This document shows positions 28,948-44,969 of a stretch of 47,697 bases of DNA, in pieces; position 1 is the stretch's first letter; every line of letters starts with the position of its first letter. The notes under the pieces were generated by a model that saw nothing but the letters and a program-made list of their open reading frames with translations, had not been told where the DNA came from and did not search any database. The stretch spans positions 1 through 47,697 of the forward strand of contig JAZRCL010000081.1 of NCBI GenBank assembly GCA_045659745.1, written 5' to 3'. A program made the translations under genes and the position numbers. Source of the DNA: Eubacteriales bacterium. Lineage in GTDB: Bacteria > Bacillota > Clostridia > Oscillospirales > CAG-272.

Positions 28948-29026
28948 TTGACTTTGTAATGAAATTGTGGTAATATATAGGTGATAAATGTTATACTTGA
29001 AGAGTAAATGTTATGTAAGTATAACA
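28948..29026 (+). promoter_or_regulatory. Promoter of the sugar operon with putative GntR operator
   Basis: TTGACT(28948)-17-TAATAT(28971); downstream TAAATGTTAT repeats at 28985 and 29005; inverted pair TGTTATACTT(28989)/AAGTATAACA(29017). Confidence 0.6.
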
Positions 29027-29050
29027 AAATATACAGGAGGAGAATTAACA

Positions 29051-30697
29051 ATGAAAAAATCTTTCAAAAAAATTGCAAGAATAGCCTTGCTTGCAGTGTG
29101 CATTTCGATGATTGCTTCTTGCTTTGTGGGTTGTTTTGGCGGCGGCGACGATCCCGAGGAAGAAAAATACAAGGATCTCGTAAAGCTCACTATTGATGCG
29201 GGCGGCCAAAATGCACAGTATAATACAACGTCTTCCTTGGAATATGACAAGTTCCTTAATCCCTATCCTTACAATACACTTGAAACTCTCGTTAAAGCTT
29301 GGAACGAAGCTAATGCGGAGAAGTACGGCTATTACTTTGTAGTAGCTGATAATTCCATTAATATGGACAGAGAAACCATGGCCCCCATGCTTTCCAACGG
29401 TTCAGCTCCCGAGATACTTTACTATCTGGGAACAACTATTGCCGAGGACCAGAGCAAGGGTTGGTTTTATGATATTTCCTCCGCTATGGAAACGCCCAAC
29501 AAGTATTCCAAGCCCGGCGAAGCAGGAAGCGAAAAGTGGAAGGATATTTGGGATAGCACATCCTACGTAAGCACGTTTGCACCTAACGGTGAGAAATATA
29601 CGGTTGAGATGGAGCAGAACCCCATAGGCATTATTTATAATAAGACACTTTTTGAGGCTGCGGGCATTACGGAAACACCCGTGACTTACAAAGATTTTAT
29701 GGAAGCTCAGGATAAGCTCAATGCTTACGCACAGACAGTAAGCAGAGCAAATCCCAGCGATGACGCTACATATATTTGCCCTTACTTCCATATGTATCCC
29801 TGGTATGACTGCTATCTTGAGTCCACGCTTTGGGCAAGTGAGCTTGAATATATGGACGTAATTACAGTTGACGGCGGTGTAGATGCTGAAGAATATGCGA
29901 GAGCATATATGCAGAAGGACCCCGTGACAGGCGAAAGACGCTTCTCCCCTGAGGACGAGAAATACGTTGAACTCTTCCGTTTGATAAAGCAGATGACAAA
30001 GTATTACCCGACAAATTACAGCTCCTACTATGCTGAGCAGCAGTTCCTCGTGGGAAATCTTGCTATGCTTGAGGTAGTAGGCGGAAGCATTCGTGAACTT
30101 GTTGACACAGTTGACGGTGAATTTGAAATAGGCGTTATGCCTTATCCCGTGCTTACACAGCAGCCCGAGAATGAAGCAGATAACCCCTACTATACAACTT
30201 TCAATGTTGACAAATACGTTCGCAGAGGCTTTTCCGGTTATTCAACAGGTTGGGCTATTACAAACTCCGCTATGAATAAGGATAGTGAGGCAGGCAATAC
30301 AAACTGTGTAGATGCTTGCGTAGACATTCTTATGTATCTGAGTTGCTTCGAGAACAACGACAAGATGGTCAACGACCTCGGATTTGCAGTTCCTCTTTCC
30401 GGAAACACAACCAACCCGTATTTCCAGGCTCTTGCTGATACCTACAAGAGCGATATTGCAAACGAAAACACCGTATCCTGGTCCTGCGTAACGGCGGGCG
30501 ATACGATGAACAAGGACTACTACGATGCATTCTACCTCTTCAGACAGGATGCAATCGGACTTAGCCTGGCTGATATCGAGGGCAAGCTTCCCATTCTTAA
30601 AAACTCGTTTATCAATGCAGTAAACACACTTTATAATACAAACAAGTGGGACAACAAGGCTTGGCCCGCATACGGAACCTCTAACAAGGAAGGATAA
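29051..30697 (+). CDS. Carbohydrate ABC transporter solute-binding lipoprotein (CUT1)
   Basis: ATG follows AGGAGG; lipobox FVGC; GIIYNKTLFEAAGITETP.T SBP_bac_1-type motif; adjacent to permeases. Confidence 0.88.
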   Translation: MKKSFKKIARIALLAVCISMIASCFVGCFGGGDDPEEEKYKDLVKLTIDAGGQNAQYNTTSSLEYDKFLNPYPYNTLETLVKAWNEANAEKYGYYFVVADNSINMDRETMAPMLSNGSAPEILYYLGTTIAEDQSKGWFYDISSAMETPNKYSKPGEAGSEKWKDIWDSTSYVSTFAPNGEKYTVEMEQNPIGIIYNKTLFEAAGITETPVTYKDFMEAQDKLNAYAQTVSRANPSDDATYICPYFHMYPWYDCYLESTLWASELEYMDVITVDGGVDAEEYARAYMQKDPVTGERRFSPEDEKYVELFRLIKQMTKYYPTNYSSYYAEQQFLVGNLAMLEVVGGSIRELVDTVDGEFEIGVMPYPVLTQQPENEADNPYYTTFNVDKYVRRGFSGYSTGWAITNSAMNKDSEAGNTNCVDACVDILMYLSCFENNDKMVNDLGFAVPLSGNTTNPYFQALADTYKSDIANENTVSWSCVTAGDTMNKDYYDAFYLFRQDAIGLSLADIEGKLPILKNSFINAVNTLYNTNKWDNKAWPAYGTSNKEG

Positions 30698-30703
30698 TAA
30701 AAA

Positions 30704-31654
30704 ATGTCAAACAAAGACAGATCAGATAAAGGAAAGCTAAAGAAGTTCTTGCGCAAGAACAGAGGATATCAAGGACTCCTCTTTATATTGCCTGCGTTTA
30801 TTCTTTTGTGCGTCTTCTGTTTGTATCCTACGATAATGGCATTTGTAAACTCCTTTACCGATTGGGACGGCGGCTCGGGAGCCGAATTTATTTGGTTCGA
30901 AAATTACAAGCGCGTATTTGCGGATAGGCTGTTCTGGAAATCTCTTCTCAATGCCGTTATCCTCACGGTCGTTGGAATGATACTCGGTAACGCGGCATCA
31001 ATCCTTCTGGCTGAGCTTATGTATAATCTCAGGTCCAGAATGATGCCCATTTACAGATTTTTATTCGTTCTTCCTGCTATGATCCCCGGCATTATCGTGC
31101 TCCTTCTTTGGCAAAAGCTTGTTTTTTCGGGCTCGTCCGCGGGTCTTGCCAATACGATAATTTCAATGTTTGGCGCAAAGCCACTTGAATGGTTTGCAAG
31201 TAAGGAGACGTGGGTAGTATTTCTCAGTATATTCCTCTACGGATTCCCTTGGGTCGGCGGTACCTCGTTCCTCATTTATCTTGCGGGACTTAACGCCATT
31301 GACCGCAGCGTTATAGAGGCGTCGCAGATTGACGGCTTGTCCTTCTGGGGAAGGGTGTTCAGAATAGATCTTCCTCTTATCAGCGGACAGCTCAAGTACT
31401 TCCTCGTAATGGGCTTTATAGGCGGACTCCAGAACTATTCAATGCAGTATGCCATCACCAATGGCGGACCGGGCGAGGTAATAGATAGCATGCTGTCGGG
31501 AACGATGGTTCCGGGTTATTACATTTACAGACTTATTACCGGCTCTTCTAAGGAGGGCGCGTACGGATACGCTTGCGCGATGGGCGTTGTCATGTTTGTT
31601 ATTATAATGATAGTAACCATCATTAACAACAAGCTTATCAAGTCGAAGGAGTAA
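30704..31654 (+). CDS. Carbohydrate ABC permease (MalF-like)
   Basis: LFILPA, SFTDW, FIWFENY, EAA loop YLAGL.AID.SVIEASQIDG and YGYACAMG. Confidence 0.93.
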   Translation: MSNKDRSDKGKLKKFLRKNRGYQGLLFILPAFILLCVFCLYPTIMAFVNSFTDWDGGSGAEFIWFENYKRVFADRLFWKSLLNAVILTVVGMILGNAASILLAELMYNLRSRMMPIYRFLFVLPAMIPGIIVLLLWQKLVFSGSSAGLANTIISMFGAKPLEWFASKETWVVFLSIFLYGFPWVGGTSFLIYLAGLNAIDRSVIEASQIDGLSFWGRVFRIDLPLISGQLKYFLVMGFIGGLQNYSMQYAITNGGPGEVIDSMLSGTMVPGYYIYRLITGSSKEGAYGYACAMGVVMFVIIMIVTIINNKLIKSKE

Positions 31655-31657
31655 GCT

Positions 31658-32530
31658 ATGAGAGATGTAAAAATAAATAAAAAAAGAAAGAAGCTGACAG
31701 TAGGACAGGTCTTCTCCCATATCATCATAATCTGCTTGCTGATAATGGTGCTGTTTCCTTTCTACATACTGATTATCAACAGCTTCAAGGCCCCTGCGGA
31801 TATCCTGAAAAATCCTCTTTCATTTCCGGGTGCGGAAGATGCGAAGGTGATTACGGGCGCGTTCAAATCCGCTTGGCCGTATATTTCAAAATATATTCTG
31901 AATACCTTTTGGGTAGCATTTCTTGAGGTCTTTGGCGTATTGCTCTTTTCCAGCCTTGCGGCATACGGCTTTTCAAGATTCAAATTCAAGGGCAAGGACA
32001 CGCTTTTTATGGTGTTCCTGGCATTTATGATGATCCCAGGTATTTTGACACTCGCCACACAGTATTCTCTGGTATATTCAACTTTGAATCTGAAGCAGAC
32101 GTATGCGGGCGTGGTGCTACCTGCAATAGCGGGAGGTATGCCTGTAAACATATTCCTTATCAAGACGTTTTTGGATGGAATTCCTTCCGATATTTACGAA
32201 GCCGCCGAAATGGACGGCGCGAGCAAGCTGGGCTGCTATTTCAGGATAGCTATCCCGCTCAGCACTCCCATCCTCTTTACCGTGGGACTGTCAACACTTC
32301 TCGGCGCGTGGAATGACGTTATCTGGGCAAGACTTATCCTTTACGGAGCAGAGGACATGTACACCATAGGCGTCGGAGTATTTACCGTGTTTGGTTCAAG
32401 CGCAGCAAAGATACCCGATACAGTGATATATGCGGGATATTGTCTTGCATCATTGCCGCTTCTTATTGCGTTCTTCTTTACGTCAAAGCAATTTATTAAG
32501 GGGCTTACTGATGGCGCAGTTAAAATGTAA
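31658..32530 (+). CDS. Carbohydrate ABC permease (MalG-like)
   Basis: NSFK, LAAYGFSRFKFKG, IPSDIYEAAEMDGAS, WND and GLTDGAVK. Confidence 0.93.
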   Translation: MRDVKINKKRKKLTVGQVFSHIIIICLLIMVLFPFYILIINSFKAPADILKNPLSFPGAEDAKVITGAFKSAWPYISKYILNTFWVAFLEVFGVLLFSSLAAYGFSRFKFKGKDTLFMVFLAFMMIPGILTLATQYSLVYSTLNLKQTYAGVVLPAIAGGMPVNIFLIKTFLDGIPSDIYEAAEMDGASKLGCYFRIAIPLSTPILFTVGLSTLLGAWNDVIWARLILYGAEDMYTIGVGVFTVFGSSAAKIPDTVIYAGYCLASLPLLIAFFFTSKQFIKGLTDGAVKM

Positions 32531-32558: not shown

Positions 32559-33605
32559 ATGAAAAAATTAGCTTTACTTTTAGCTATTGTAATGCTTCTT
32601 GCGGCATTGCCGGGCTGTGAGAATATGCTTTCAACGCCTACGACTGATCCTGATGGCGAGCTTGTGCCTGTTGAAAGAGAGCTCCTCTTTGACAAGAATT
32701 TTGAGCAGGGAATCAAGATATCCAACCTAAACTCCCATCAGGTGGGTTATACCTGGTGGAAGTACGGTGAGTCGGGAGGCGAGGAGCCCTTTTGGTCGCT
32801 TGGTCAGTATTGCGATCTTTCCACAACGAGAGCAAATTACGATTCAACGAAAAATGACTTGTCATTGGGGAATGAGCTTTTTGACATTCCCGCATATGGA
32901 ATTGAGGGCGTTAACGGCGACTACTTTACCCTCACAAATGAATCCGGAAGCAAGTATATATCCGTAAACACCAAAACCGGTGAGTATAATCTTAACGTGG
33001 ACACCACAAAGGAGTACGTCAATCAAGAAACAGGCAAGCCTGTCGTTCGTAAAAACGGAGAAGATTGGGTGCACATGATAATTCAGCAAACACCCGGCGT
33101 GGTTTACCTAGACCAGGTAGAGTCCTTTATTATAGAGCTTGATTTCACGATAACGGAGAATATCGAATACGACAATTCGATAGGCGCTTCGCAGTTCCAG
33201 TGGATATTCTCGGTTCACGATAAGGAAAGTGTGTTGGGCGATTATATGTGGTTTAACGTAACGCTCTTTGACAATCGCTATGAGGTTTTCCCGGGCACAC
33301 AGCTTTATGACGGAGGCAAGGCAGACTCCACGGGCAAGTTCATATATGCACCTACGGGCGAGGAGCTTTTCCCCGAAAGCGGAGGTAAGGTAGAGGTAGG
33401 AAAGACCTATCACGTAAAGCTCGATCTGAAGGAATATATGAAGGCGGCCTTTGATCTTGCCAAGAGCAAGGGCGCTCTTGCTCAGTCCGAGTGGGAAAAC
33501 ATGGCGGTAAACGGTTTTAACATTGGTTGGGAGGTTTCAAACCTTGCCAAGGTTGGAGTTAAAATCGAAAATATGTCCTTGAGGGTGATAGACTATGAAA
33601 AATAA
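32559..33605 (+). CDS. Lipoprotein of unknown function, copy 1 of a shared ~300-aa domain
   Basis: ATG follows GAGGTG; lipobox LPGC; motifs shared with the genes at 33595 and 38378. Confidence 0.8.
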   Translation: MKKLALLLAIVMLLAALPGCENMLSTPTTDPDGELVPVERELLFDKNFEQGIKISNLNSHQVGYTWWKYGESGGEEPFWSLGQYCDLSTTRANYDSTKNDLSLGNELFDIPAYGIEGVNGDYFTLTNESGSKYISVNTKTGEYNLNVDTTKEYVNQETGKPVVRKNGEDWVHMIIQQTPGVVYLDQVESFIIELDFTITENIEYDNSIGASQFQWIFSVHDKESVLGDYMWFNVTLFDNRYEVFPGTQLYDGGKADSTGKFIYAPTGEELFPESGGKVEVGKTYHVKLDLKEYMKAAFDLAKSKGALAQSEWENMAVNGFNIGWEVSNLAKVGVKIENMSLRVIDYEK

Positions 33606-34707
33606 TTTGATCAAAGCTGTTGCTTTGATACTGACAATGGCTACAGGAGTAATTATGGTAAGCGGTTGCGATATTTTTAACGGTGCTTTGGAAACACCTA
33701 CAACGGAGAGACCCGATCTCACGTGGGAAGCGGTAACGGAAGGACAGTTGCTGGAAAGACCTAAATTTGACGAGGATGGCACAGTTGAGCTGCTCGACGA
33801 CCTCAACTTTTCCAGAGGATTTTCCGTAACACTCTTCCACGCAAATTCTTCTAACGGAAATCTTGCGGGCAATCTTGATTATGATGGCAATAAGGCGGAT
33901 GGAGACAGTGTCTGGCGTATGGCTCAGTGGGGCTGTACCAAGGATATGGCAACGGAAGGAGTTTTTGAGAGAGACGGTTCGGTTATTACATATAATGACG
34001 GAGCAAAATTTCTTCAAATTGATTCCGCAAAAACAGGAACTATTACGCTTGGAATAAAGGGAAGTGAAGAATATACAAGGGATGCGGACGGTAATATCCG
34101 TGAGCGTACCGACGGTGCCGAAAACTGGCCGCATATTCTTATTGAGCAGTCTGTAATGGCTGACACAAGCGATTGCAAGCATCTCTATATGGAGGTCGAC
34201 TACAAGGTGACCCAATGCGAGAGCCTTGTTGACAGAACGCTTTATCCCTTGAATACAAATCTGAATGCGGCTCAGTTCCAGTGGTTCATTACACTTACCG
34301 ATAGTAATCCCGATAGCGAAAGCTATGGAAATTCTATGTGGTTTGGCTTTTCAATGTTTGACACGCGTGCGCTTAACGACACACCCGGCGGTTTTGCGTC
34401 TTATGACGGGGGCAAAGAGGACAGCACAGGACTGTTTATCTATATGGTTTCTCTTCAGTCCGTTGCAGCACAGCAGAAAAATTCCGTAAACATTCCTACC
34501 GCGGTTATAGGTAAGGACGTAAGCGTTAAGGTGGATATTCTTCCTTATATCAAACAAGCTCTTAAAATTGCCCGTCAGAACGGCGCAATGATGGGAGCAA
34601 GTGCCGATCAGCTTGTAATCGGCAGTACAAATATTGGCTGGGAGCTTCCCGGCAACTATGATGTTGAGGTTGAAATATCCTATCTCAATATGTATAAATC
34701 GAATTAA
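33595..34707 (+). CDS. Lipoprotein of unknown function, copy 2 of the shared domain
   Basis: Lipobox VSGC; ENWPHILIEQ, AQFQWF, MWFG..FDTR, DGGKEDSTGLFIY and NIGWE. Confidence 0.8.
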   Translation: MKNNLIKAVALILTMATGVIMVSGCDIFNGALETPTTERPDLTWEAVTEGQLLERPKFDEDGTVELLDDLNFSRGFSVTLFHANSSNGNLAGNLDYDGNKADGDSVWRMAQWGCTKDMATEGVFERDGSVITYNDGAKFLQIDSAKTGTITLGIKGSEEYTRDADGNIRERTDGAENWPHILIEQSVMADTSDCKHLYMEVDYKVTQCESLVDRTLYPLNTNLNAAQFQWFITLTDSNPDSESYGNSMWFGFSMFDTRALNDTPGGFASYDGGKEDSTGLFIYMVSLQSVAAQQKNSVNIPTAVIGKDVSVKVDILPYIKQALKIARQNGAMMGASADQLVIGSTNIGWELPGNYDVEVEISYLNMYKSN

Positions 34708-34756
34708 TTATGGTGAGCCATATTAATTAATAAAATTCATTTTTTTGGAGGGAATT

Positions 34757-37700
34757 ATGAAAAAAAGAATTTTAGCGCTTTTACTTGCGTTCACAATGAT
34801 GATTTCATTATTCGGACAAATATTGGTATCTGCGCAGGACGAAACAGCTACACCCGTTTGGACAGCAAACGGCACAACTGTAACAGAAGGCGAAGACGGA
34901 TATTATAATGTTTCCGGCCTTCAGTATGACACAAGTGCGTATACGACCGAAAAGTACGTGCTTGACGGACTTACCGTTGAAATGAAGCTTGCTGACTTTG
35001 CGGCAAACATGGCAGCCGGCTTTGTATTCTCGTCTGAACCCGGCGCGAGCTACGGCACATCCAATGCGGTTGCTATGACGCTCTGGTTTGATCCTTATTC
35101 CATTGGTCAGTCCAGATTCCACGTAGGCGCTAATCACGACTACAATGGAGAAACTTACGTTTACAGGGATTCTCAAGGCGCTACAGGTCAGGGCTTTGGT
35201 CTTGACAAGACAATGGTTCTTAACAACGTAACAAACGCTGATATTAAGATCGAAATCAACTCTGAAAATGATATCGCCTATAGAGTTAAGTTTACAATTA
35301 TGCAGGATAACCTCCTTTGGGGCGACAATATCAACTATGCTGATGAAGTGGGCGGCGGACATTCTTGCACGTTCTATCTTGCAAAGGCTCAGTTTGCAAA
35401 CATTCTTGACGCAAACGGAGCGCTTTACGTTGCCGCAACAGGACTTACAGCGCCCAACTATAGCGTTAGAGTGACCGGAGTTACTGCTCCTGCTACCACA
35501 CCTGATCCTACACCCGATCCCGATCCTACACCCGATCCTGATCCTACACCCGATCCCGATCCTACTCCTGATCCTGATCCTACTCCCGATCCTGAACCTT
35601 CAGTTTCCACTATTGTAGGAACAACAGACAGTGACTGGAGCCAAAGCTTTAATACTCCCGCTGTATTGAAGTTTGCAGAAAACGGCTATACCGAAGTTTC
35701 TAACCTTAACGGCTGGGGAACACGTGCTCATTATAATCACCTTGTTAAGCTTGACGGACTTGAGCTCAGCTTCAGAGCCGCAACAAAATTCAAGGATTGC
35801 GTAGGTATAGTTTTGTCAAACGCGGCAGGCGCATATTTCACCGAGGCAAACACAATTGCTATCACATATTGGAACGATCCATTTGGCGCAGGACAGGCAA
35901 GACTTGCTTTTACTACCAATCACAACTATGAGAGTGAGCCTCTCGTTCACGTAGCTCCTGACCTCACATCTGCAAAGGGCTTTGGAGCCGACAAGTCTAT
36001 GGTAAGCAATGCTGCTGAAATAGTTGGCTATACAATCAAGATCGAGTCCTATAACGAAGAATTCTATTCTGTAAAGATCACAATGACTGATAGCGGTTTG
36101 TGGGAAATCAACGCAAACTACAACGCAGAAGATAAGAGCTGTACAGTATATCTTCCCAAGGCAGCGGTAGCAGGCATCCTTAACGAAAACGGCGAGCTGT
36201 ACGTTATGGCAGCAGGCTTCCCTGACGGTGCAAATCCCGCTCCCGCAGTAGAAGTGAAGATAGTTGATGACAACTATAGAGCTTATTTTGCAGGCGAGGC
36301 TGTAACAGGCGCGGTTGAAAAGTACGAGGCTTATGAGACAGCTGCAGGCGCTATCGTAGACGCAACCTCCTATGATGCGGCTATGACAGCAAGAGCAGAT
36401 GCACTTGCTTGTATCGGCGCACTCCGTTCAAGAGAGGCTGCTGAGCTTGCTCTTGCTATCTCTACAATTGATGCTGAGCTCTCAGCTAACGAAGAGATAG
36501 TTATTATCGTTAAAAAGGCAGTCACAGATAAAATTGACGCAGCTGTAGCTGCTTACGAGGCACTTATTGCTGATACGACGACACTCGCCGGCGAGTCTCT
36601 CGCAGCTGCGCTTGCTCTTACAGACGAAGCAAAGGCAGAATATGCAAACAGAGCGTCTATGCTCAGTGACGAAGCAAAGGCAGAGATTGAAGAATCAATT
36701 GCGGCTCTTGATTACGGACACGATTATTGCATAGGTCTTCTTTGGGTGACAACCTACGAAGCTATGATCGATGCTCTTGACGCAACAGATCCCGAAATCG
36801 TTAATGCTCTCGTTGATGTTAAGGCTTACAGAGCAGCATACGAGACAACAACAGCTTACACAAAGATCACCACAGTTCTCGACGAAGAGGACAGAGAAGC
36901 TCTTGAAGCAGCAATTGCAGCAGGCGACGCAGCAGTTGTAAATATTGAAACAGTAGTTCTTCCCCAGCTTAAGGAAAGCTATGTCAAGGCTATGGAAGAT
37001 AAGCTTGAAGCAGACCTTACAATCAAGCCTAATCTCGACGATGCTAAGACAGCATACGCAGAGATCGCAATTTACGTTACGATCACAGAAGATGACGGCG
37101 AGCTTTACAACCGTTATGTAGCGGGCTACAATGCACTTAAGGCAGCTTGCGAGGCATTCGTTCGTGCACAGATGGCAGAGGTTTCCGAGCTTCTTAAAAA
37201 GGAATACACCGTACTTGATGAATTTGTGCCTGTTCGCACAAAGTACAAGGCTATCAAGCTTGATTACCTTATGGAAGAAAACACAGAGATAGTAGCTGAG
37301 CTTGCTGAGCTTGAGCGCAACATTGTTGGAACCGTATTCTATTACATGAGTTCTACTAACGTTCCGTCTGTTGAACATAAGAACAACGGTATTGTAGTTG
37401 AGTCCACACCCGAATTCCCCTCACGCTTTAACTACAACAAGGCTATCAATCTCAAGACAGGAGCAGAATTTGTTATTGAGCTTACAAGCGCGGCATACTA
37501 CAATGACGGCACAAGCGCAAATAACCTTTGCTTCAACTTCTTGTCTGATCCTGATTCCTACAAGTCTATGAGCGACGGTATCTCCATTATTATCTGGCTC
37601 TATCCTACGGAATCCAACGTTCAGATTATGAACTACACCGATGTACCTCTTGCAAATAGCCCCATTGCTACTCCTCTTGACGGCGGCACGATCACCATTT

Positions 37701-38200
37701 CCGTTAAGTACGAGGAATATTACAGCTTTGTAGATGATTCTACATACTGGGCTTACGTTATCAGAGTAAACGAGGCTGAGATAGTACTTACTCCCGAGGT
37801 TCTTACAAACCAGGGCCACGATGTTCCCGATGAGGTTTACTTCTCTATGGGTTCGTTTGCAGATAATAAGGCTAACCCCAACATCCTTACACTCGTAAGC
37901 GCTAACGGTATTCAGTATGGTGTTCCTTCTGATGATACCGAGTGCAGAGAGCACGTTGACGCCAACTCTGACGGCAAGTGTGATAACTGCGGCGAAACCG
38001 TTGAATCACAGCAGCCCGGTGAGCCTAAGCCTGAAGATCCCAACACTCCCGCAGATCCCACAGATCCCGACGCTGGCAATGATGGCGACGGCAAGAAGAA
38101 GGGATGCAAGGGATGCGGCTCCGTTATCGGACTTGGCGCATTCGCAGTTGTCGCAACCATCGGCCTTGCAGGAATAGTTTTCCTCAAGAAGAAGGACTAA
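34757..38200 (+). CDS. Large cell-surface protein: duplicated beta-rich domains, PDPT linker, helical stalk, Cys-containing C-terminal anchor
   Basis: Signal peptide (..VSA/QDE); two clear internal repeats; Ala/Glu-rich stalk; C-terminal KKKGCKGCGS-TM-KKKD. Confidence 0.85.
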   Translation: MKKRILALLLAFTMMISLFGQILVSAQDETATPVWTANGTTVTEGEDGYYNVSGLQYDTSAYTTEKYVLDGLTVEMKLADFAANMAAGFVFSSEPGASYGTSNAVAMTLWFDPYSIGQSRFHVGANHDYNGETYVYRDSQGATGQGFGLDKTMVLNNVTNADIKIEINSENDIAYRVKFTIMQDNLLWGDNINYADEVGGGHSCTFYLAKAQFANILDANGALYVAATGLTAPNYSVRVTGVTAPATTPDPTPDPDPTPDPDPTPDPDPTPDPDPTPDPEPSVSTIVGTTDSDWSQSFNTPAVLKFAENGYTEVSNLNGWGTRAHYNHLVKLDGLELSFRAATKFKDCVGIVLSNAAGAYFTEANTIAITYWNDPFGAGQARLAFTTNHNYESEPLVHVAPDLTSAKGFGADKSMVSNAAEIVGYTIKIESYNEEFYSVKITMTDSGLWEINANYNAEDKSCTVYLPKAAVAGILNENGELYVMAAGFPDGANPAPAVEVKIVDDNYRAYFAGEAVTGAVEKYEAYETAAGAIVDATSYDAAMTARADALACIGALRSREAAELALAISTIDAELSANEEIVIIVKKAVTDKIDAAVAAYEALIADTTTLAGESLAAALALTDEAKAEYANRASMLSDEAKAEIEESIAALDYGHDYCIGLLWVTTYEAMIDALDATDPEIVNALVDVKAYRAAYETTTAYTKITTVLDEEDREALEAAIAAGDAAVVNIETVVLPQLKESYVKAMEDKLEADLTIKPNLDDAKTAYAEIAIYVTITEDDGELYNRYVAGYNALKAACEAFVRAQMAEVSELLKKEYTVLDEFVPVRTKYKAIKLDYLMEENTEIVAELAELERNIVGTVFYYMSSTNVPSVEHKNNGIVVESTPEFPSRFNYNKAINLKTGAEFVIELTSAAYYNDGTSANNLCFNFLSDPDSYKSMSDGISIIIWLYPTESNVQIMNYTDVPLANSPIATPLDGGTITISVKYEEYYSFVDDSTYWAYVIRVNEAEIVLTPEVLTNQGHDVPDEVYFSMGSFADNKANPNILTLVSANGIQYGVPSDDTECREHVDANSDGKCDNCGETVESQQPGEPKPEDPNTPADPTDPDAGNDGDGKKKGCKGCGSVIGLGAFAVVATIGLAGIVFLKKKD
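35501..35598 (+). repeat. 18-bp tandem repeat encoding a (PDPTPD)n linker
   Basis: About five copies of CCYGATCCTACWCCYGAT. Confidence 0.9.
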
Positions 38201-38377
38201 TTACAATCTGAATTAAAAATATTTAAGCCGGATAATTCATTCTTTAATTGAATTGATGGCAAATAAGCTTTGGATTTATCATAGGTAAATCCGGATATTA
38301 TGGCTTCCGGGTGTTATATTATAATGCCCGGAAGTTCTTATAAAACCTTTATTTCACAGCGAACGAGGTGAAACGAA

Positions 38378-40789
38378 TTGAAAAGAATAAATAAGCTCCT
38401 GGCGTTGCTGCTCGTGTTTACTGTTATAATCTCCTTGGTTTCATGCAATGCCTGGAACGGTTGGGAGGACAACTCCGACGGCGAGCCGAATACCCCCAAC
38501 ACACCTAACACCCCCAACACACCTGATGACAAGCCCGGCGAAAATAATCCTCCGGAAGATAATATGAAACTTGAAAATTATACGCAGCCCTTCTGGGTAG
38601 GTGATACAATGCACGATGAGAGCGTAATGCTCGTTGCAAAAACCGACAGCGAGGGCAATGTTATTGAGGCACCCCGTGCCAAACTCCTTTTTGAAGCAGA
38701 AAAAATTCAGTCCGTTACGTGGTATTTCCACGAAAACAACGGCTCTCAAATAAAAACGTTTACTGAAGGCGTAGATTTTGTTTATCAAAACGGATATATC
38801 GTTGCAAAGGGAAGTATTATTCACAACGATATACTTGAGATTGACGAATTCTCAACGAATATGCCCTACGTTACCGACAAGATGCTCACAGGTGAGCAGC
38901 AGTTCCCGGGGCTTACCTTACAGTCCGATATTCCATCAAAGACAAACGGCCTTTGTCTGCCATTTACAGAGGGATATCAGATAGTTCAGATGCAGCTTAG
39001 CGTCACTTATACTCATGCTGAAGGCATGTGGGAGGGAAGCGTACCTGAATATCTCGGCGACACAAAGTTGAGTGGAACACTTACAAAGCTCAAAAACAAA
39101 GATGAGGTAAACGTGCTTGTGTTTGGCGACAGTATTTCCACGGGCGCAAACTCATCCTCTGTACTTGGTATTACTCCAAATCTTCCCACATGGCCTGAGC
39201 TGTTTGCCAACGGGCTTTCCTCTTATTACGGCGGCACGGTCAATCTCAAGAATACCAGCGTTGGCGGTTGGACATCCTCAAACGGAGTCAGCGGCGGTAC
39301 AGGCTGGGTAGCAGGCAAGCAGGTACAAAAGCCCGGTCTTGCGACACAGTTTGCCTCGGGTGAGATCAAGGGCTTTGTTCCCGATATTGCCATCATTGGA
39401 TTCGGAATGAACGATGCGTCCCTCAGCCTTTCTATTAACACTTTTTGTAATAACATTATCAGTATGATAAAGACTATTCGTCAGCAGAATCCCAATTGCG
39501 AGATCATTCTTCTTGGAACAATGCTTGCAAATCCTATGGCGAAAAACCAGTCAAAGAATCAGACGGAATATACCGAATATCTTGGCAAGCTGTCAAAGAA
39601 TTATGAAAACGTAGCTGTTGTTGATATCGGCGCTATGCATCAGGATCTTCTTGATTCGGGTAAATACTATACCGAGATGTCCAGCAACAACGTAAACCAC
39701 CCCAACGATTTCTTCGCGCGTGTTTACGCTATGAATCTTCTTGCATCTCTTATAGATTTTGATTATGAGGTATCCGAGCCCGTTGACCCGATTGAACCGA
39801 ATGACCCTGTCAAACCAAGTGAGCCCGTCGAACCGAATGACCCTATCGAACCTGATGAACCCGAAACAGTTTACGATCAGTTTATAGAAAACGGCTATGA
39901 TGCGCTTTTTGCAGACCCGTTTCTCAAAAATGGGGTTTCAGTTTTAAGGCCTGACGGAAGTGTGGCAGGCACGATTTCCGGTGTCAATGCCGATGGCAAA
40001 CCCTCTTGGGTATTTCCGCAGTGGGGCTCAAAATATGATATCTACGATTACGCCGAAAGAAATTATTACAACGGCGGAGATGCCTTTACCTACGCATCCG
40101 AGGGTAAGACGGTTAACGGCGTCAATATTCCAGCTAAAATTTTGACTGTCGACAGCACGGATGGCTCGATATATATGGAGCTAAACGCGCAGGTGGAATA
40201 TGACCACCCCCGTCAGGACGGCGAGAGCTGGCCTCATACACTCTTGTCCCAGGATTTCGGTCCCGAGCTTGTTCACGTCAGCGAGCTTGATGATCTTGTA
40301 ATGAATATGAGCTATGAGATAACCAAGTTTGAGGACTGTATGGGTAGCTCCGCGGATTCAAATAAACACTGTGCTCAGCTCGTTTGGTATATTACACTCC
40401 AAAACAGAACGGAAGGGCACAAGGATTACGGCAAATACGTTTGGTTTGGAATTACCCTTTGGGATAACCGTATATCCGGTGCCGCCTCTAATGGATTTGC
40501 TGCAGAGGATGCAGGCAAGGATGACGCAACACACGCGTTCATCTACCAGCCTTCTTCCGCTATCGTTCATACCAATGGCAAATGCCCCACGGTGAACGAA
40601 TACAAAACGGTTGACTTCCATCTTCTCGATGCCGCAAGAGAGGCATTCAATACAGCCAAGGATAGAGGTTATCTTGGCGATACCGAGTGGGAGGACCTCT
40701 ATATTGGAGGAATGAACTTCGGCTTTGAGGTGACGGGAACATATAACGTCGCGGTCCAGATAGACTCCGTGGGAGTATATTACAAATAA
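38378..40789 (+). CDS. Lipoprotein: SGNH/GDSL esterase fused to copy 3 of the shared unknown domain
   Basis: Lipobox LVSC; VFGDSIS, VGG, FGMND and NHPN SGNH blocks; Pro linker; C-terminal domain with ESWPH, AQLVWY, WDNR, DAGKDDATHAFIY and NFGFE. Confidence 0.82.
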   Translation: MKRINKLLALLLVFTVIISLVSCNAWNGWEDNSDGEPNTPNTPNTPNTPDDKPGENNPPEDNMKLENYTQPFWVGDTMHDESVMLVAKTDSEGNVIEAPRAKLLFEAEKIQSVTWYFHENNGSQIKTFTEGVDFVYQNGYIVAKGSIIHNDILEIDEFSTNMPYVTDKMLTGEQQFPGLTLQSDIPSKTNGLCLPFTEGYQIVQMQLSVTYTHAEGMWEGSVPEYLGDTKLSGTLTKLKNKDEVNVLVFGDSISTGANSSSVLGITPNLPTWPELFANGLSSYYGGTVNLKNTSVGGWTSSNGVSGGTGWVAGKQVQKPGLATQFASGEIKGFVPDIAIIGFGMNDASLSLSINTFCNNIISMIKTIRQQNPNCEIILLGTMLANPMAKNQSKNQTEYTEYLGKLSKNYENVAVVDIGAMHQDLLDSGKYYTEMSSNNVNHPNDFFARVYAMNLLASLIDFDYEVSEPVDPIEPNDPVKPSEPVEPNDPIEPDEPETVYDQFIENGYDALFADPFLKNGVSVLRPDGSVAGTISGVNADGKPSWVFPQWGSKYDIYDYAERNYYNGGDAFTYASEGKTVNGVNIPAKILTVDSTDGSIYMELNAQVEYDHPRQDGESWPHTLLSQDFGPELVHVSELDDLVMNMSYEITKFEDCMGSSADSNKHCAQLVWYITLQNRTEGHKDYGKYVWFGITLWDNRISGAASNGFAAEDAGKDDATHAFIYQPSSAIVHTNGKCPTVNEYKTVDFHLLDAAREAFNTAKDRGYLGDTEWEDLYIGGMNFGFEVTGTYNVAVQIDSVGVYYK

Positions 40790-40883
40790 GAATAAGGGAG
40801 AGCTACGCGGCTTTGGAACGGCAGTGTTTGAGCTGGCCAAAGCGCTATAAATTTGATCTCCTTTGGCAATAGGAAATAAGATT

Positions 40884-43130
40884 ATGTACGGATTGGATAA
40901 AAACAAAAATTTCAGCGAAAATATTTATGACATAGCAGACGAACCCATTCTGGCGACCCTTTTTACAACGGGCAACGGATATATGGGCGTCAGAGGAAGC
41001 TTTGAGGAGTTTGGTTCTCAGCGTGTTCAGGGCGCATTCGTCCGCGGCTTCATAGACGAGATAATCGAGGTGACAGAGCCGTTCACGGACAACGAGTATA
41101 TGAAAAAATACTACCTTGACGAGGAAAAGCTTAAAACCTTTGAAAAGCAGGATAGCTGTGTCAACATGCACGATTTCCTAACGGTTAAGATAACCGTTGG
41201 TGAAAAAACCTTCTTCCCGTGGGAAGGGAAAGTAGTTAAGTGGCATCGTTTCCTTGATCCTAAAACAGCAGTTTATAAAAGAGAACTTGTATGGGATGAC
41301 GGAGAGGGAAACAGGACTGAGTTTATCTTTGAGCGTTTTGCTTCGTTTGCAGATGAACATCTCTACTGTCAAAAAATTAAGGTAAGACCCATAAATCACA
41401 GCTTGCCTGTAAAGATCATGTCGGGTATTGATACCTCAATCAAGACAGGCGGTCAGTTTATTACAAAAACGGATCTCTTGCAGATAGAGGGCTTTGATAT
41501 TCTTCACAGATATCACGCTACAAATAAATATGGCTTTTCGGCTTGCTACGGAATAAAAAATGTATTTCCTGCTGGCAAGGTGCTTGGAAAATACGATGAC
41601 AACGGTACGGTAGGCATTGAATACCTCTGTGAGAATGCAAAAGCCTATACCTTTGAGAAGATAACCTATATCATTACTGATAGAGACACCGACAGAGATA
41701 TTACTGATTGCGCCACAGAAAAGCTCGCAGTGGGCGATTTTGATTACACCAAGCTCAAAAAGGCACATATATCTGTATATAAATCGTATTTTGCAATGAT
41801 GGACGTCACAATTGAGGGTGACGACGAGGTGGACGCATATCTCAGATTTGCAAGCTACCATACTGCCATTTCCGCTTCAATGAATGACAGTGTTCACGGA
41901 ATCTCCGCCAAGGGACTCACAGGCGAAAGATATAATCAATTCGTTTGGTGGGACTGTGAGATCCACCAGATGCCATTCTTTTTGCTCACCGCACCTGAAA
42001 CGGCGAAAAATGCGCTTATGTATAGATACAGAATGCTGCCACAGGCAAAGAAAAATGCTAAAGAAAAGGGATATGACGGAGCTATGTTTGCCTTCTGCTC
42101 GTCTGTGTGTGGCGACGAAAGAGTATGGCAGTATGCGCGTCACCCCTTTATGCAGATACATATCAACTCCGATATTCCGTACGGCATTATAAATTATTAC
42201 CGATACACGGGTGACAGAGAGTTTATGACGGGCTACGGTATGGAGATAATACTTGAATGCCTTAAGTTCTGGGTATCCCGCGTAAGCCTCAACGGCGACA
42301 GATACGAGATATGCAGGGTGACGGGCACTGACGAGCATCACCCATACGTTGATAACGACGCATATACGAACTATTGTGTTAAATTCGCATTTGACCGTTT
42401 TATCTCCCTTTGCGAGGAGCTTTCTTATGAGGTTGAGCCGTCTTTACTTGAGAAGATGAGGGATATCGCCTCGAGGCTCTATCTTCCTATGTGCGAGAAC
42501 GGACTTATTCCTCAGTTTGACGGATATTTCGGGCTTTCTCGCTCGCTTGAAGAGCAGGGCAAGGGAACGTTGAAGCAGTTCCAGATGAAGAAGAGCGGGC
42601 TCTATCACAAGAGCCAGATAATAAAGCAGCCCGACGTTGTTTTGCTTTACACAATGGTTGACGTTGGTGTTGACAGATCTCATTTTGCGGAAAACTGGGA
42701 CTATTACGAGAATATGTGCGAGGTAAGCTCATCGCTTACGTTCCCTGTGCATGCCATAGCCTCTGCGCAGAACAAGCAGATCTTGTCCTTCCGCAAAAAC
42801 CTTCTCAACACCGTCAAAATGGACGTTGACGATATTCACGGAGTTGCATGGCAGGGCGTTCACAGCGGTTGCCTTGCGGGCGGCTATCTTGCGGTCATCT
42901 ACGGCATCTTCGGACTTTCTGTCGGAGTGGACGGTACGCTTTGCGTAAACCCCATCAGAACGCTTTTTGAAGGCGTTACGGCTCATTTCTTATACAAGGG
43001 TACAAAGATAACCCTGAGTATCAAAAACAATGAATTGACCATTAAAAAGAAGGGCGCAGGCGCTATCAACGTCAGAACTCCGGACGGTCAGGAGAGAATG
43101 CTCAAAAATACACTTGTTTATAAAATGTGA
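40884..43130 (+). CDS. Glycoside hydrolase family 65 protein (alpha-glucoside phosphorylase-like)
   Basis: GNGYMGVRGSFEE, AKGLTGE.Y, WWDCEI, HINSDI, GTDEHH (catalytic GPDEY equivalent), KQPDV and SSL; alternative TTG start at 40863. Confidence 0.92.
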   Translation: MYGLDKNKNFSENIYDIADEPILATLFTTGNGYMGVRGSFEEFGSQRVQGAFVRGFIDEIIEVTEPFTDNEYMKKYYLDEEKLKTFEKQDSCVNMHDFLTVKITVGEKTFFPWEGKVVKWHRFLDPKTAVYKRELVWDDGEGNRTEFIFERFASFADEHLYCQKIKVRPINHSLPVKIMSGIDTSIKTGGQFITKTDLLQIEGFDILHRYHATNKYGFSACYGIKNVFPAGKVLGKYDDNGTVGIEYLCENAKAYTFEKITYIITDRDTDRDITDCATEKLAVGDFDYTKLKKAHISVYKSYFAMMDVTIEGDDEVDAYLRFASYHTAISASMNDSVHGISAKGLTGERYNQFVWWDCEIHQMPFFLLTAPETAKNALMYRYRMLPQAKKNAKEKGYDGAMFAFCSSVCGDERVWQYARHPFMQIHINSDIPYGIINYYRYTGDREFMTGYGMEIILECLKFWVSRVSLNGDRYEICRVTGTDEHHPYVDNDAYTNYCVKFAFDRFISLCEELSYEVEPSLLEKMRDIASRLYLPMCENGLIPQFDGYFGLSRSLEEQGKGTLKQFQMKKSGLYHKSQIIKQPDVVLLYTMVDVGVDRSHFAENWDYYENMCEVSSSLTFPVHAIASAQNKQILSFRKNLLNTVKMDVDDIHGVAWQGVHSGCLAGGYLAVIYGIFGLSVGVDGTLCVNPIRTLFEGVTAHFLYKGTKITLSIKNNELTIKKKGAGAINVRTPDGQERMLKNTLVYKM

Positions 43131-43138
43131 GGGGTGCT

Positions 43139-43771
43139 ATGAAGGGATTTATATTTGACCTTGACGGCGTTATAGTTTCTACGGACGGACTTCATTATCT
43201 TGCGTGGAAGCAGATGGCGGATAAAGAGGGGATATACTTTGACGAGAAGATAAATAACCGTCTTCGCGGTGTGAGTCGTATGGCAAGTCTTGAAATTGTT
43301 CTTGAGCGCGCAAGCAGAGAATATTCTGAAGAGGAAAAGCAGATTCTTGCTACGTATAAGAACGATATCTACAAGGAGCTTCTTAAAAGCCTTACACCCG
43401 CAGACATACTTCCCGGAGTGGTAGCAACCCTTGACGAGCTTCGCACGCGCGGATATAAGCTTGCGATAGGCTCCTCAAGCAGAAATACTCCGGCCATACT
43501 CAAATATATCGGTCTTGAAGGATTTTTTGATGCAATTTCCGACGGAAATAACATCAAAAACAGTAAGCCCGATCCCGAGGTGTTCATCAAGGGCGCGCTT
43601 TTCTTGGGGCTTGATGCCTCGGAGTGCTACATCGTTGAAGACGCCAAGGCAGGCGTGGATGCAGGCAGAGCAGGGGGCTTTACAACCATCGCTCTCGGCG
43701 ATGCTTACGGATATGAAAATGCGGATCACTGTATCAAGCATTTTAACGAGATACTCGATATAGCAAAATAA
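43139..43771 (+). CDS. pgmB: Beta-phosphoglucomutase
   Basis: FDLDGVI, HYLAWK, LRGVSRMASL, SSSRN, KPDPEVF and VEDA HAD motifs; adjacent to GH65. Confidence 0.93.
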   Translation: MKGFIFDLDGVIVSTDGLHYLAWKQMADKEGIYFDEKINNRLRGVSRMASLEIVLERASREYSEEEKQILATYKNDIYKELLKSLTPADILPGVVATLDELRTRGYKLAIGSSSRNTPAILKYIGLEGFFDAISDGNNIKNSKPDPEVFIKGALFLGLDASECYIVEDAKAGVDAGRAGGFTTIALGDAYGYENADHCIKHFNEILDIAK

Positions 43772-43887: not shown

Positions 43888-44097
43888 TCAAAACACGTTG
43901 ATGCCGCGATCTTTCAAAATAAGCTTTGCCTGTTTAATCTGCTCGGCTTCGGGGATCCACTCTTTTCTTCCGTTATCCTCACCGCCGAGAAAGACCGACT
44001 TTGTGCCTCCGCAGGCGTGGTACGGCAACAGCTCCACCCCCTCGCGGTTTGACAAAGACGAGGCGATTTTTGCAATATCGCGATAATGCTCTTCATC
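43888..44097 (-). pseudogene. 3' fragment of a glycyl-radical-enzyme activating enzyme (radical SAM)
   Basis: Hand translation DEEHYRDIAKIASSLSNREGVELLPYHACGGTKSVFLGG..NVF*; VELLPYH..G..K is the PflA-family C-terminal motif; no start codon and no CxxxCxxC. Confidence 0.75.
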
Positions 44098-44854: not shown

Positions 44855-44969
44855 ATCATCACCTCCTGATATCATTATACATAACAAAACTATTAAAATC
44901 AATTGACAATCCTATATATATAATACCACATGAGAGAAACAAAGTCTATAACTTTCATAAAAATAACAA

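Follow-up and report, generated by a model that had tools for sequence, protein, structure and literature searches.

A candidate carbohydrate-active enzyme family with a GH12-like jelly-roll fold in a sugar-uptake locus of gut Clostridia

The window analysed here is a stretch of 47,697 nucleotides from an Eubacteriales bacterium (contig JAZRCL010000081.1). It carries a sugar-uptake locus in which a regulator is followed by an ABC importer, two lipoproteins made of a domain that we call X, the surface protein P0004, an SGNH esterase fused to X, a GH65 phosphorylase and a beta-phosphoglucomutase. The features are as follows:

27531-28658, minus strand: divergent regulator with a GntR-type HTH and a LacI/periplasmic-binding-protein-type sugar sensor (PF00392, PF13407)
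28988-30697, plus strand: ABC solute-binding lipoprotein (SBP) of 569 aa (PF01547), lipobox read from sequence
30704-31654 and 31658-32530, plus strand: two ABC permease genes, MalF/G- and UgpA/E-like (best NCBIfam matches, all below cut-off)
32559-33605, plus strand: P0001, X paralogue A, a 348-aa lipoprotein with a single X domain (about aa 40-348), LPGC lipobox read from sequence
33595-34707, plus strand: P0002, X paralogue B, a 370-aa lipoprotein with a single X domain (about aa 63-370)
34745-38200, plus strand: P0004, a surface protein of 1151 aa with signal peptide, two L-type (legume) lectin-like repeats and a C-terminal membrane anchor
38378-40789, plus strand: P0003, an 803-aa lipoprotein with an N-terminal domain, a GDSL/SGNH esterase, a Pro-rich linker and X paralogue C
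40863-43130, plus strand: GH65 alpha-glucoside phosphorylase (PF03632, 264 bits; PF03636, 133 bits), no signal peptide
43127-43771, plus strand: beta-phosphoglucomutase (TIGR01990, 240.6 bits, cut-off 189.4)

X is a domain of about 300 aa found here in three paralogous copies, two of them as lipoproteins and one at the C-terminus of an SGNH-esterase lipoprotein, and a search of the genome gave exactly these three. The three reading frames are open on the plus strand, and the start of P0002 overlaps the end of P0001 by 11 nt. In P0003, an N-terminal domain without family assignment (about aa 62-240) precedes the esterase domain (aa 246-444, nt 39113-39709), which matches PF13472 with 71.3 bits (cut-off 32.9) and PF00657 with 46.7 bits (cut-off 23.6), carries the GDS catalytic-serine motif within VFGDSIS and is followed by X at about aa 500-803 (nt 39875-40786). 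The three copies are homologous, with pairwise BLASTP E values of 7e-32 (P0001 and P0002), 9e-25 (P0001 and P0003) and 6e-34 (P0002 and P0003) in matches that span almost the whole domain at about 26-29% identity. An initial annotation of this DNA had proposed three copies with collinear conserved blocks, one of them fused to an SGNH esterase, and both claims are upheld, by these E values and by the PF13472 match. Every conserved block that it had listed is present in the three-way alignment (L..D..F/L..G, W...QW/Y, E.W.H....Q, A/SQF/L.W, M/VWF.....D.R, DG/AGK.DS/AT..FIY and NI/FGW/FE). All 18 of the family-wide conserved residues that could be mapped are retained in the three copies, the key positions being D45, H172, Q212, G227, W231, D238, R240, D251 and E325 in P0001, D69, H180, Q227, G245, W249, D256, R258, D271 and E350 in P0002, and D513, H620, H664, Q667, G685, W689, D696, R698, D711 and E784 in P0003.

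The X family comprises 857 clusters at 50% identity (E<=1e-3), or 318 at E<=1e-30, and is rare in the phylum, occurring in two of 401 sampled genomes. Neither Pfam nor NCBIfam gave an X-domain match in the three window proteins or in 103 members scanned singly, and a PDB sequence search also gave none, which bears out the earlier view that the domain is unrecognised. Database relatives are all named 'hypothetical protein', Atlas neighbours are unnamed, and a literature search found no paper on the family. Conservation was scored on 103 aligned members, with residues numbered as in P0002. D69, W178, G348 and E350 are invariant (103/103), and Q111, Y160, R171, H180, Q227, W249, D256, R258, D271 and N346 are kept in at least 92% of members. 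Such a combination of four carboxylates with Arg, His and Trp is commonly found in active sites. H224 is present in 90 of the 103, with Gly in its place in P0001 and Asn in P0002. Members may be fused to SGNH or BD-FAE esterases, GH16, a dockerin, a T9SS tail or P0004-like lectin repeats. Some have no signal peptide, namely six among 52 X ORFs from metagenomes and the central paralogue of locus L030; an in-frame stop closely precedes the domain, where their reading frames begin, and they sit in operons with GH65 or GH106. As such members cannot be secreted, they fit poorly with a role of X as a surface lectin or as a binding module attached to other domains.

The AlphaFold model of P0002 (pLDDT 88.2, pTM 0.85) is a beta-jelly roll whose nearest solved folds are GH12 glycanases. 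The best 50 Foldseek matches listed are all GH12 or GH11 (best E 2.8e-8), with low TM-scores of 0.3-0.5. In VIA-align, GH12 takes ranks 1-5 of a wide search and ranks 1-23 of a second look, at Z 10.4-11.9 (10.6-11.9 in the second look), with about 175-200 residues aligned within model residues 69-370 and an rmsd of 3.4-4.1; other jelly rolls trail it by only about 1-3 Z units (CBM70 4d0q 10.3-10.5, CBM16 2zew 9.6, PL7 8.2-9.0, GH16 about 8.8). From Q227 to the C-terminus the model runs through five strands, one helix and two strands, an order that matches GH11/GH12, and it shows the jelly roll with one helix before the last two strands expected of GH12. The likeness to GH12 suggested at first is therefore borne out at the level of the fold, with GH12 chains heading both structural lists.

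At the level of sequence, the GH12 model PF01670 matched none of the three window proteins (E<=1) and none of 103 relatives (E<=0.01), while the same model picked up genuine GH12 genes in two control genomes and in two from the phylum. An hhalign comparison of the 103-sequence X alignment with a 26-sequence GH12 alignment was not significant (probability 0.92%, E 0.059), and two runs placed the AQF.W strand differently, so the residue equivalences that follow are of low confidence. In this weak alignment, G348-x-E350 falls on G241-x-E243, the G-T-E acid/base motif of GH12, and W249 on W159; E350, which lies on the penultimate strand 20 residues before the C-terminus, would thus be the acid/base Glu of the G-x-E. 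The GH12 E-x-M-I-W strand aligns with the (M/V)WF block of X, AQF.W being the preceding strand, and the nucleophile position is G245; the three window copies and 73 of 103 members have Gly there, the other members N, R or K, and no Glu is conserved on that strand. The initial annotation had placed the Gln of AQF.W at this position; that assignment is not supported, but what follows from it in practice, that X has no Glu nucleophile, stands. A Gly at the nucleophile position implies that a second catalytic group would come from elsewhere, for which D256, D271 and D69 are conserved candidates.

The span covered by the initial annotation also includes a fourth, unrelated gene, P0004 (34745-38200), which was not described there. 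Its lectin-like repeats (nt 34832-35479 and 35627-36304) are 38% identical to each other (E 2e-34) and are accompanied by a Pro/Thr/Asp linker, a long Ala/Glu-rich helical region and a third beta domain. The model of P0004 (pLDDT 93.6) has the L-type lectin fold, with legume lectins as top Foldseek matches (E about 1e-6) and VIA Z scores of 14.7 to 7exo_A (175 residues, rmsd 3.1) and 11.3-12.5 to the lectin domains of SraP, ERGIC-53, YwfG, Aap and VIP36. Pfam and NCBIfam scans of the locus proteins gave no candidate extracellular depolymerase other than X. In the window, the locus has no rhamnosidase, rhamnose gene or phosphoesterase gene; the only phosphoesterase counterpart elsewhere in the genome is a 34%-identical paralogue on another contig. 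The 1.67-Mb genome does contain RhaA matches as well as GH106-like and GH78-like matches, and an FGGY kinase near the window locus is unrelated to the rhamnulokinase-like FGGY kinase of the distant X-bearing genome G341.

The GH65 protein is the only one in its genome, against a background of GH65 in 68 of 401 genomes of the phylum (about 0.3 copies per genome). Its nearest PDB entry is 3WIQ (E 5.6e-76), and its K, S-S and H correspond to K330, S631-S632 and H675 of that structure, in agreement with the phosphate-site residues (Lys/Arg, Ser-Ser, His) listed in PMC11442529. The same paper gives kojibiose and nigerose phosphorylases a Trp-Glu pair in the +1 subsite (W391-E392 of CsKP); the locus enzyme reads F-C there and so lacks the mark of that subgroup. 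The motif read at six positions of the enzyme (S or E, C, S, gap, gap, K) matches no motif quoted in the text of PMC8537180.

The gene order of the window recurs in gut Clostridia. Among 35 related loci, the regulator stands at the same place in 21, the SBP is present in 25, a permease in 27, P0004 in 27, SGNH in 25 and GH65 in at least 14. A locus of the same kind, on a contig of Pumilibacter muris CLA-AA-M08, is 58% identical over paralogue A, and in L032 the GH65 gene lies between separate genes for X and the SGNH enzyme. A secreted metallophosphoesterase of 774 aa directly follows the SGNH-X gene in 16 of the 35, and two loci (L021 and L032) have a GDPD enzyme, neighbours that point to a phosphodiester-containing substrate. 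Among 63 non-redundant metagenome X loci, 30 of them of at least 8 kb, GH65 was found in seven, SGNH in ten, GH106 in four and GH78 in four, and rhamnosidases and GH65 occur together with X in L055 and L089. The tie of X to an esterase and GH65 noted earlier is thus recurrent and no one-off.

More distant members adjoin GH65, SGNH esterases, GH106/GH78 rhamnosidases, rhaA/rhaB/rhaD-type genes, SusC/D pairs and secreted phosphoesterases, and this association with sugar genes recurs across loci only 24-35% identical. X occurs also in SusC/D loci of Bacteroidota, in a dockerin-bearing protein, on a Planctomycetota-labelled contig and in rhamnose operons; in G341 the order is DeoR, GH106, an isomerase-like TIM barrel, a class II aldolase, an FGGY kinase, X and an SBP. 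In 96 scanned proteins (87 first neighbours and nine long X-bearing ORFs) we counted Aldolase_II five times and GH16 four times, together with two purple-acid-phosphatase-type proteins and two sulfatases, which suggest anionic substrates; a second tally over 102 proteins gave SusD seven times, RhaA three, FGGY three and GH65N two. The link to rhamnose comes from these distant members and not from the window locus.

Taken together, these data favour, at a probability of about one half, X being an undescribed carbohydrate-active enzyme family with a GH12-like beta-jelly roll that would cut acylated rhamnose/glucose glycans and is probably derived, at a distance, from clan GH-C. From the homology of the copies, the fold, the conservation, the neighbourhoods and the families of the neighbouring genes we infer that X is catalytic, which residues take part, what it acts on and how the proteins share the work. 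X would keep the Glu at the GH12 acid/base position (E350) within a non-canonical catalytic pair. At the cell surface, P0004 with its lectin repeats would bind the glycan, which would be O-acylated and bear alpha-glucosyl and probably also L-rhamnosyl units, as would, for instance, a rhamnopolysaccharide of a bacterial wall or capsule. There the SGNH domain of P0003 would strip its acyl groups, and the three X proteins, tethered to the membrane, would cleave it. The ABC system would import the fragments, GH65 would phosphorolyse the alpha-glucoside to beta-glucose 1-phosphate, and the beta-phosphoglucomutase would convert this to glucose 6-phosphate. The metallophosphoesterase and GDPD neighbours are accommodated only loosely by this scheme.

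That X might instead be a non-catalytic glycan-binding domain, either a degenerate GH12-like lectin or a new CBM, is the strongest alternative, though to us clearly the less likely one. Alone, X would then be a surface glycan-binding lipoprotein, and fused to esterases or GH16 a targeting module. Such a role would be consistent with the GH12 nucleophile place having no carboxylate and with the appending of X to three unrelated catalytic domains (SGNH, BD-FAE and GH16), since attachment to various catalytic domains is typical of binding modules. It would also agree with the scores of 4d0q (rmsd 2.8-2.9) and 2zew, near those of GH12, with that of the lectin-like C-terminal domain of esterase 6yp6 (Z 8.7), and with the several paralogues per locus, which resemble the surface glycan-binding protein sets of PULs. 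However, catabolic operons include members that have no signal peptide, P0004 already supplies the locus with a lectin fold, and about 18 near-invariant residues over some 300 aa in paralogues of no more than 25-30% identity (four carboxylates, two Arg and one His among them) are more than binding modules usually keep. Moreover, a binding role for X would leave the locus without any extracellular depolymerase.

We consider it improbable that X is an enzyme of a kind other than a glycoside hydrolase, such as a PL7-type jelly-roll lyase using His/Tyr with Arg/Gln or a phosphodiester cleaver acting on teichoic-acid-like or phosphoglycan polymers. The conserved R171, R258, H180, Q227 and Y160 and the frequent H224 could serve such chemistry, and PL7 lyases do appear in the fold list; yet GH12 stands above PL7 in every such list, H224 is replaced in P0001 and P0002, and no genes for handling unsaturated uronates were seen in the window. 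Cleavage of phosphodiesters would be in keeping with the metallophosphoesterase and GDPD neighbours, the phosphatase-type proteins and sulfatases, and permeases as close to UgpA/E as to MalF/G, but the window locus itself has no phosphoesterase, the genome having only the paralogue on another contig, and we know of no jelly-roll phosphodiesterase. Action on something other than a glycan, for instance as a structural cell-surface protein with an incidental association with sugar genes, is very improbable: the uninformative database names would allow it, but the links to GH65, SGNH, rhamnosidases, rhamnose catabolism, SusC/D and ABC importers recur at 24-35% identity, X is fused to GH16, dockerin and esterases, and its nearest folds are glycanases.

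Returning to X as a glycanase, streptococcal, lactococcal and enterococcal rhamnose-glucose cell-wall polysaccharides bear alpha-glucosyl side chains, O-acyl groups and glycerol-phosphate decorations. A joint reading, which we offer as a speculation and consider unlikely in its entirety, is that X could be a new GH family depolymerising rhamnose-rich bacterial surface polymers with a nucleophile-less, GH12-derived scaffold and a replacement Asp from another strand. GH65 would then be an alpha-glucosyl-rhamnose phosphorylase, the secreted phosphoesterases of related loci would strip phosphate decorations, and the whole would be the first described system for small-genome gut Clostridia feeding on the walls of other Gram-positives. 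The family has more than 800 clusters without a Pfam or NCBIfam name or a solved structure, yet is central to a conserved sugar-uptake locus whose hosts are poorly known, mostly uncultured gut Clostridia. If X is catalytic, it would represent a new CAZy family and an active-site variant of clan GH-C without the canonical nucleophile, and would link an orphan branch of GH65 phosphorylases to a polymer as its substrate. If that substrate is a wall rhamnopolysaccharide or a teichoic-type polymer, X would offer a handle on gut cross-feeding on dead bacterial walls, and growth and induction tests would be practical should P. muris CLA-AA-M08 (L033) be cultivable.

Among known systems, PL7 alginate and glucuronan lyases share the jelly roll, and Arg, Gln, His and Tyr are conserved in X, but the Q-x-H type motif, a feature of PL7, was not seen in X, no uronate pathway lies nearby and PL7 ranks lower. 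CBM70 (4D0Q), CBM16 (2ZEW), CBM4 (1GUI) and the C-terminal domain of the phage SGNH esterase 6YP6 have a jelly-roll core like that of X (Z 8.3-10.5, low rmsd), and X, like CBMs, can be appended to esterases and glycanases; unlike CBMs, of about 140-220 aa, it is often standalone, sometimes without a signal peptide, and keeps many charged residues over about 300 aa. GH11 xylanases, also of clan GH-C, have a fold of the same class as X (Z 9.4-10.2; E about 1e-6 to 1e-5 in Foldseek) but score below GH12 and show no sequence similarity to X, near which no xylan-related genes lie. The best structural match is GH12 (clan GH-C: P. furiosus EGPf 3VGI and 3WY6, T. maritima Cel12A 3AMM, B. licheniformis XG12 2JEM; Z 10.6-11.9 over about 195 residues), with which X shares a jelly-roll sandwich whose single helix precedes the last two strands, the G-x-E on the penultimate strand, a Trp aligned with that of E-x-M-I-W, and a place among secreted glycan-related proteins. 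X differs from GH12, of about 220-260 aa, in its N-terminal extension bearing the invariant D69, in the Gly in place of the nucleophile Glu, in having no significant sequence or profile similarity and in its conserved set (D69, R171, H180, Q227, D256, R258 and D271), which is not that of the GH12 alignment, and the neighbourhoods of X point to alpha-glucoside/rhamnose glycans and not to beta-glucans.

Three proteins of the window share an unnamed domain of ~300 aa, hereafter domain X, which we consider a putative new family of carbohydrate-active enzymes near clan GH-C, with a probability of roughly one half. Their genes are part of a locus with the following order.

Genes of the locus, in order
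Position 1, divergent: regulator of the GntR-HTH/sugar-sensor type
Position 2: solute-binding lipoprotein, 569 aa
Position 3: two ABC permeases
Position 4, 32559-33605 (+): X-A (P0001), 348 aa, domain X; lipoprotein signal peptide, LPGC
Position 5, 33595-34707 (+): X-B (P0002), 370 aa, domain X; lipoprotein signal peptide, VSGC
Position 6, 34745-38200 (+): P0004, 1151 aa, the fourth gene inside the same region
Position 7, 38378-40789 (+): SGNH-X (P0003), 803 aa, the last ~300 residues being domain X; lipoprotein signal peptide, LVSC
Position 8, 40863-43130 (+): GH65 enzyme
Position 9, 43127-43771 (+): beta-phosphoglucomutase

P0001, P0002 and the C-terminal part of P0003 are homologous in pairwise BLASTP comparisons (E-values of 7e-32, 9e-25 and 6e-34; 26-29% identity), and every motif block listed in the initial annotation is present in their three-way alignment. 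The fusion to an SGNH esterase that it proposed is also confirmed, with a GDSL/SGNH domain at aa 246-444 of P0003 over the Pfam cut-offs. The lipoboxes were read off the protein sequences, and the host genome (1.67 Mb in 101 contigs, 96% complete) has these three copies only. The start of P0002 and the end of P0001 share 11 nt (33595-33605), an overlap that suggests translational coupling of both lipoprotein genes. Within the first 240 residues of P0003 (38378-39100), Pfam gives no match for the ~180 aa that separate the lipoprotein signal from the SGNH domain. Related loci, L032 among them, keep this region together with the SGNH domain; in L032, domain X and this two-part enzyme are encoded by separate genes flanking GH65.

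Domain X had been described as unrecognised, and the searches agree. Neither Pfam nor NCBIfam has a match to it in P0001, P0002 or P0003, Pfam searches run one by one on 103 relatives gave nothing relevant, and profiles of 3 and 103 sequences retrieved only chance rows from the PDB sequences (E of at least 0.06). In the protein atlas, 30 of the 30 clusters nearest to P0002 and 29 of the 30 nearest to the query P0056 were without a common Pfam family. The source names of the matches were 'hypothetical protein' in all cases seen, and a literature search found no paper describing the family or its locus type. Domain X is unrecognised by Pfam, NCBIfam, the PDB and the protein atlas; it may have a recent CAZy number.

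A profile search over 1.84 billion representatives placed 857 clusters in the family at E<=1e-3 and 318 at E<=1e-30. The domain is rare across genomes, occurring in two of 401 sampled genomes of the phylum, the window's own included, in a count that scored at most five candidates per genome and that weak copies could escape. Invariant in the 103-sequence alignment are D69, W178, G348 and E350 (P0002 numbering), and F72, G75, W107, Q111, Y160, R171, H180, L182, Q227, W249, F250, D256, R258, D271, G273, N346 and G353 recur in 90% or more of the sequences. The window's three copies retain all these positions, bar hydrophobic swaps at F72/L182 and Asn for G353 in P0001. H224, found in 90 of the 103 members, is present among the window copies in P0003 only.

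The surface protein P0004 has two N-terminal repeats (34832-35479 and 35627-36304; 38% identity, E 2e-34), neither of which is covered by a Pfam family. They were modelled as L-type (legume) lectin domains with a pLDDT of 93.6, and VIA gave Z-scores of 14.7 against an archaeal legume-lectin domain and of 11.3-12.5 against lectin domains from three Gram-positive adhesins, SraP, YwfG and Aap. The repeats are followed by a linker rich in (T/D)P and by an extended helical part with much Ala and Glu; a further beta domain, the third, comes next, and the protein sequence shows a membrane anchor at the C-terminus.

The GH65 enzyme is the sole copy in the genome, has no signal peptide and retains the phosphate-site residues of the phosphorylases. 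Each of its best 120 homologues has either no name or a generic one, and no NCBIfam equivalog was over its cut-off. It has neither the Trp-Glu of the kojibiose/nigerose enzymes nor the two Phe residues found in the glucosylglycerol enzyme, as these appear in the available portions of PMC11442529. At its six specificity positions it agrees with no motif given in the available portions of PMC8537180, where a single-sequence GH65 subgroup with the motif SVSWRQ is described.

Window genes further upstream of the locus are seemingly unrelated to it. They include a 941-aa protein with a CotH-kinase domain (10482-13310, minus strand) and a 486-aa BspA-type leucine-rich-repeat protein (23569-25029, plus strand), both probably surface-associated and unrelated to the locus. 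A 300-aa ORF at 1462-2364 has a weak GH43 match of 27 bits, below the 32.2-bit cut-off. On the minus strand at 44093-44902, a 268-aa ORF matches positions 153-314 only of a 647-position pyruvate-formate-lyase-like profile, and resembles a fragment or else a shortened gene for a glycyl-radical enzyme.

With the three-sequence alignment as query, 35 related loci were retrieved from species-representative genomes, nearly all of them MAGs from gut or rumen that carry the labels Clostridia, Eubacteriales, Oscillospiraceae or Christensenella, and one from Pumilibacter muris. The binding protein occurs in 25/35, a permease in 27/35, P0004 in 27/35 and the SGNH enzyme in 25/35; GH65 is found, in conserved order, in at least 14/35, many loci stopping short of its place. 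Christensenella-type loci have a fourth paralogue of domain X. In 16 of the 35 loci the SGNH-X gene is directly followed by that of a secreted 774-aa calcineurin-like metallophosphoesterase (e.g. L010:18143-20464), which ends in a stretch similar by eye to the lectin repeats of P0004 and then a hydrophobic tail. A 704-aa GDPD phosphodiesterase is also present in two loci (L021:16957-18876 and L032:7652-9763). Because of these phosphoesterase genes in close relatives, the data suggest that the natural polymer also bears phosphodiester decorations, which are common on Gram-positive wall polymers. The window's locus has neither enzyme, and a 34%-identical paralogue of the metallophosphoesterase is found only on another contig (C45) of the genome. 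One related locus (L011:12310-12912) has a stop codon in frame within the region that corresponds to lectin repeat 1 of its P0004 orthologue; an error in the sequence or a damaged repeat could account for it.

More distant members came from a metagenome scan with a 25-sequence alignment, which gave 80 loci; 17 were dropped as having a domain X at least 85% identical to an earlier one, and among the 63 retained, 30 are at least 8 kb long and 52 have a script-called X ORF. Using proteins from the present study as tblastn queries, GH65 was found in 7 of the 63 (at 40-51% identity with the window's enzyme), SGNH in 10, GH106 in 4, GH78 in 4, beta-phosphoglucomutase in 3, and the ABC binding protein and permease in 11 each. 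GH106 is near domain X in L030 and GH78 in L041, and both GH106 and GH65 accompany it in L055 and L089. GH65 occurs in 68 of the 401 genomes of the phylum (~130 matches overall), and by a rough estimate the chance of meeting it in a random 20-kb stretch is well below 1%. Pfam was run on 87 first neighbours plus 9 ORFs of at least 400 aa that carry domain X, 96 proteins in all, and recovered class II aldolase (5), GH16 (4), beta-helix (3), GDSL (3) and TIG (3), and 102 second and third neighbours gave SusD (7), ABC permease (7), SusC-type Plug (4), RhaA (3), FGGY kinase (3), GDSL (3) and the GH65 N-domain (2). Since most neighbour families occur once, these tallies are recurring themes, with no uniform context.

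In the genome G341 domain X lies in a rhamnose-type operon (DeoR, GH106, isomerase-like TIM barrel, class II aldolase, FGGY kinase, X, binding protein). Outside the locus, the window's genome has matches to RhaA and weak ones to GH106 and GH78. The probable link to rhamnose draws on distant relatives and on these genes elsewhere in the genome, and not on the window's locus. The window's FGGY kinase at 25828-27372 was rejected as a G341-type rhamnulokinase, having no similarity to it and only weak XylB-like matches in NCBIfam.

Within the family, domain X is fused to an SGNH esterase (in the window), to an alpha/beta esterase of the BD-FAE type, to GH16 (in L038, on a contig labelled Planctomycetota), to dockerin, to TIG and to a T9SS sorting tail. 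Other architectures are tandem X-X and ~1200-aa proteins in which distant relatives of the P0004 repeats are joined to a C-terminal domain X. Three tandem paralogues occur in L030 (9330-12357), L089 (8898-11927) and L096, the outer two being lipoproteins and the middle one lacking a signal peptide. The paralogues come after a GH106 gene and an ABC importer and before the gene of a secreted ~940-aa protein with no Pfam match, beyond which L089 has a GH65 gene. Besides these middle paralogues, 6 of the 52 metagenome ORFs have no signal peptide. Such ORFs, L089:10001-10864 among them, start at the first motif of the domain, with an in-frame stop 5-25 codons upstream, and stand beside GH65 or GH106.

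The AlphaFold2 model of P0002, built on the 103-sequence alignment (pLDDT 88.2, pTM 0.85), is nearly all beta, with a single helix at 316-328. The top 50 rows listed by Foldseek against the PDB were all GH12/GH11 (best E 2.8e-8; TM-scores of 0.3-0.5). Against 48,161 representative chains, VIA-align put GH12 at ranks 1-5 (Z 11.6-10.4), followed by CBM70 (10.3), GH11 (9.4-9.8), CBM16 (9.6), PL7 (~9) and GH16 (~8.8). A second look at the Foldseek best 1000 gave GH12 at ranks 1-23 (Z 11.9-10.6), with ~175-200 residues aligned at 3.6-4.1 rmsd and 7-14% identity, spanning model residues 69-370. From these rankings the nearest solved fold to the modelled domain is GH12, by a modest margin over other jelly rolls.

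That small margin over binding-module folds, the missing nucleophile carboxylate and the fusion of domain X with a number of unrelated catalytic domains, a habit of binding modules, would all suit a domain that only binds. We nevertheless regard this as unlikely, since the number and kind of conserved residues suit an active site, the nearest fold is that of a glycanase with the Glu at the acid/base place kept, and some family members cannot be secreted. Moreover, a lectin-fold protein is already encoded separately in the locus, which has no extracellular depolymerase besides domain X. A lyase or phosphodiesterase is less likely still, and a role unrelated to glycans is very improbable.

On the favoured reading, the three tethered X enzymes would work at the cell surface on an O-acylated glycan, together with the SGNH esterase and the lectin protein. 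This glycan would bear alpha-glucosyl and probably rhamnosyl residues, and its fragments, once imported, would pass to GH65 and beta-phosphoglucomutase for the final steps. Domain X is attractive for bench work for its family's size, its lost nucleophile, the orphan GH65 partner and a possible link to bacterial wall polymers. New CAZy families turn up regularly, which tempers the surprise; the fold is of a known kind, and the family, its set of conserved residues and its locus are undescribed as far as checked.

For comparison with GH12, a 26-sequence alignment of fetched true GH12 genes was used (B. licheniformis protein numbering), in which E155 of D-E-x-M-I-W and E243 of G-T-E are both invariant. 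We take E155 to be the nucleophile and E243 the acid/base, and the E134C and E197A mutants named in PDB titles are consistent with these roles. The hhalign comparison of the two families was not significant (probability 0.92%, E 0.059) and served solely as a guide to residue register; despite this, its alignment is collinear with the fold match, and the resulting equivalences are of low confidence. The initial annotation had equated the AQF.W strand of domain X with the GH12 nucleophile strand E.MIW. In this tentative register the equation seems off by one strand, because hhalign sets E155 on G245. The two hhalign runs placed the AQF.W strand differently. The residue at G245 is Gly in each of the window's three copies and in 73 of 103 members, and the annotation's conclusion that a Glu nucleophile is missing would still hold. 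In the same register, W249 of domain X would fall on W159 of GH12, and G348-x-E350 on G241-x-E243.
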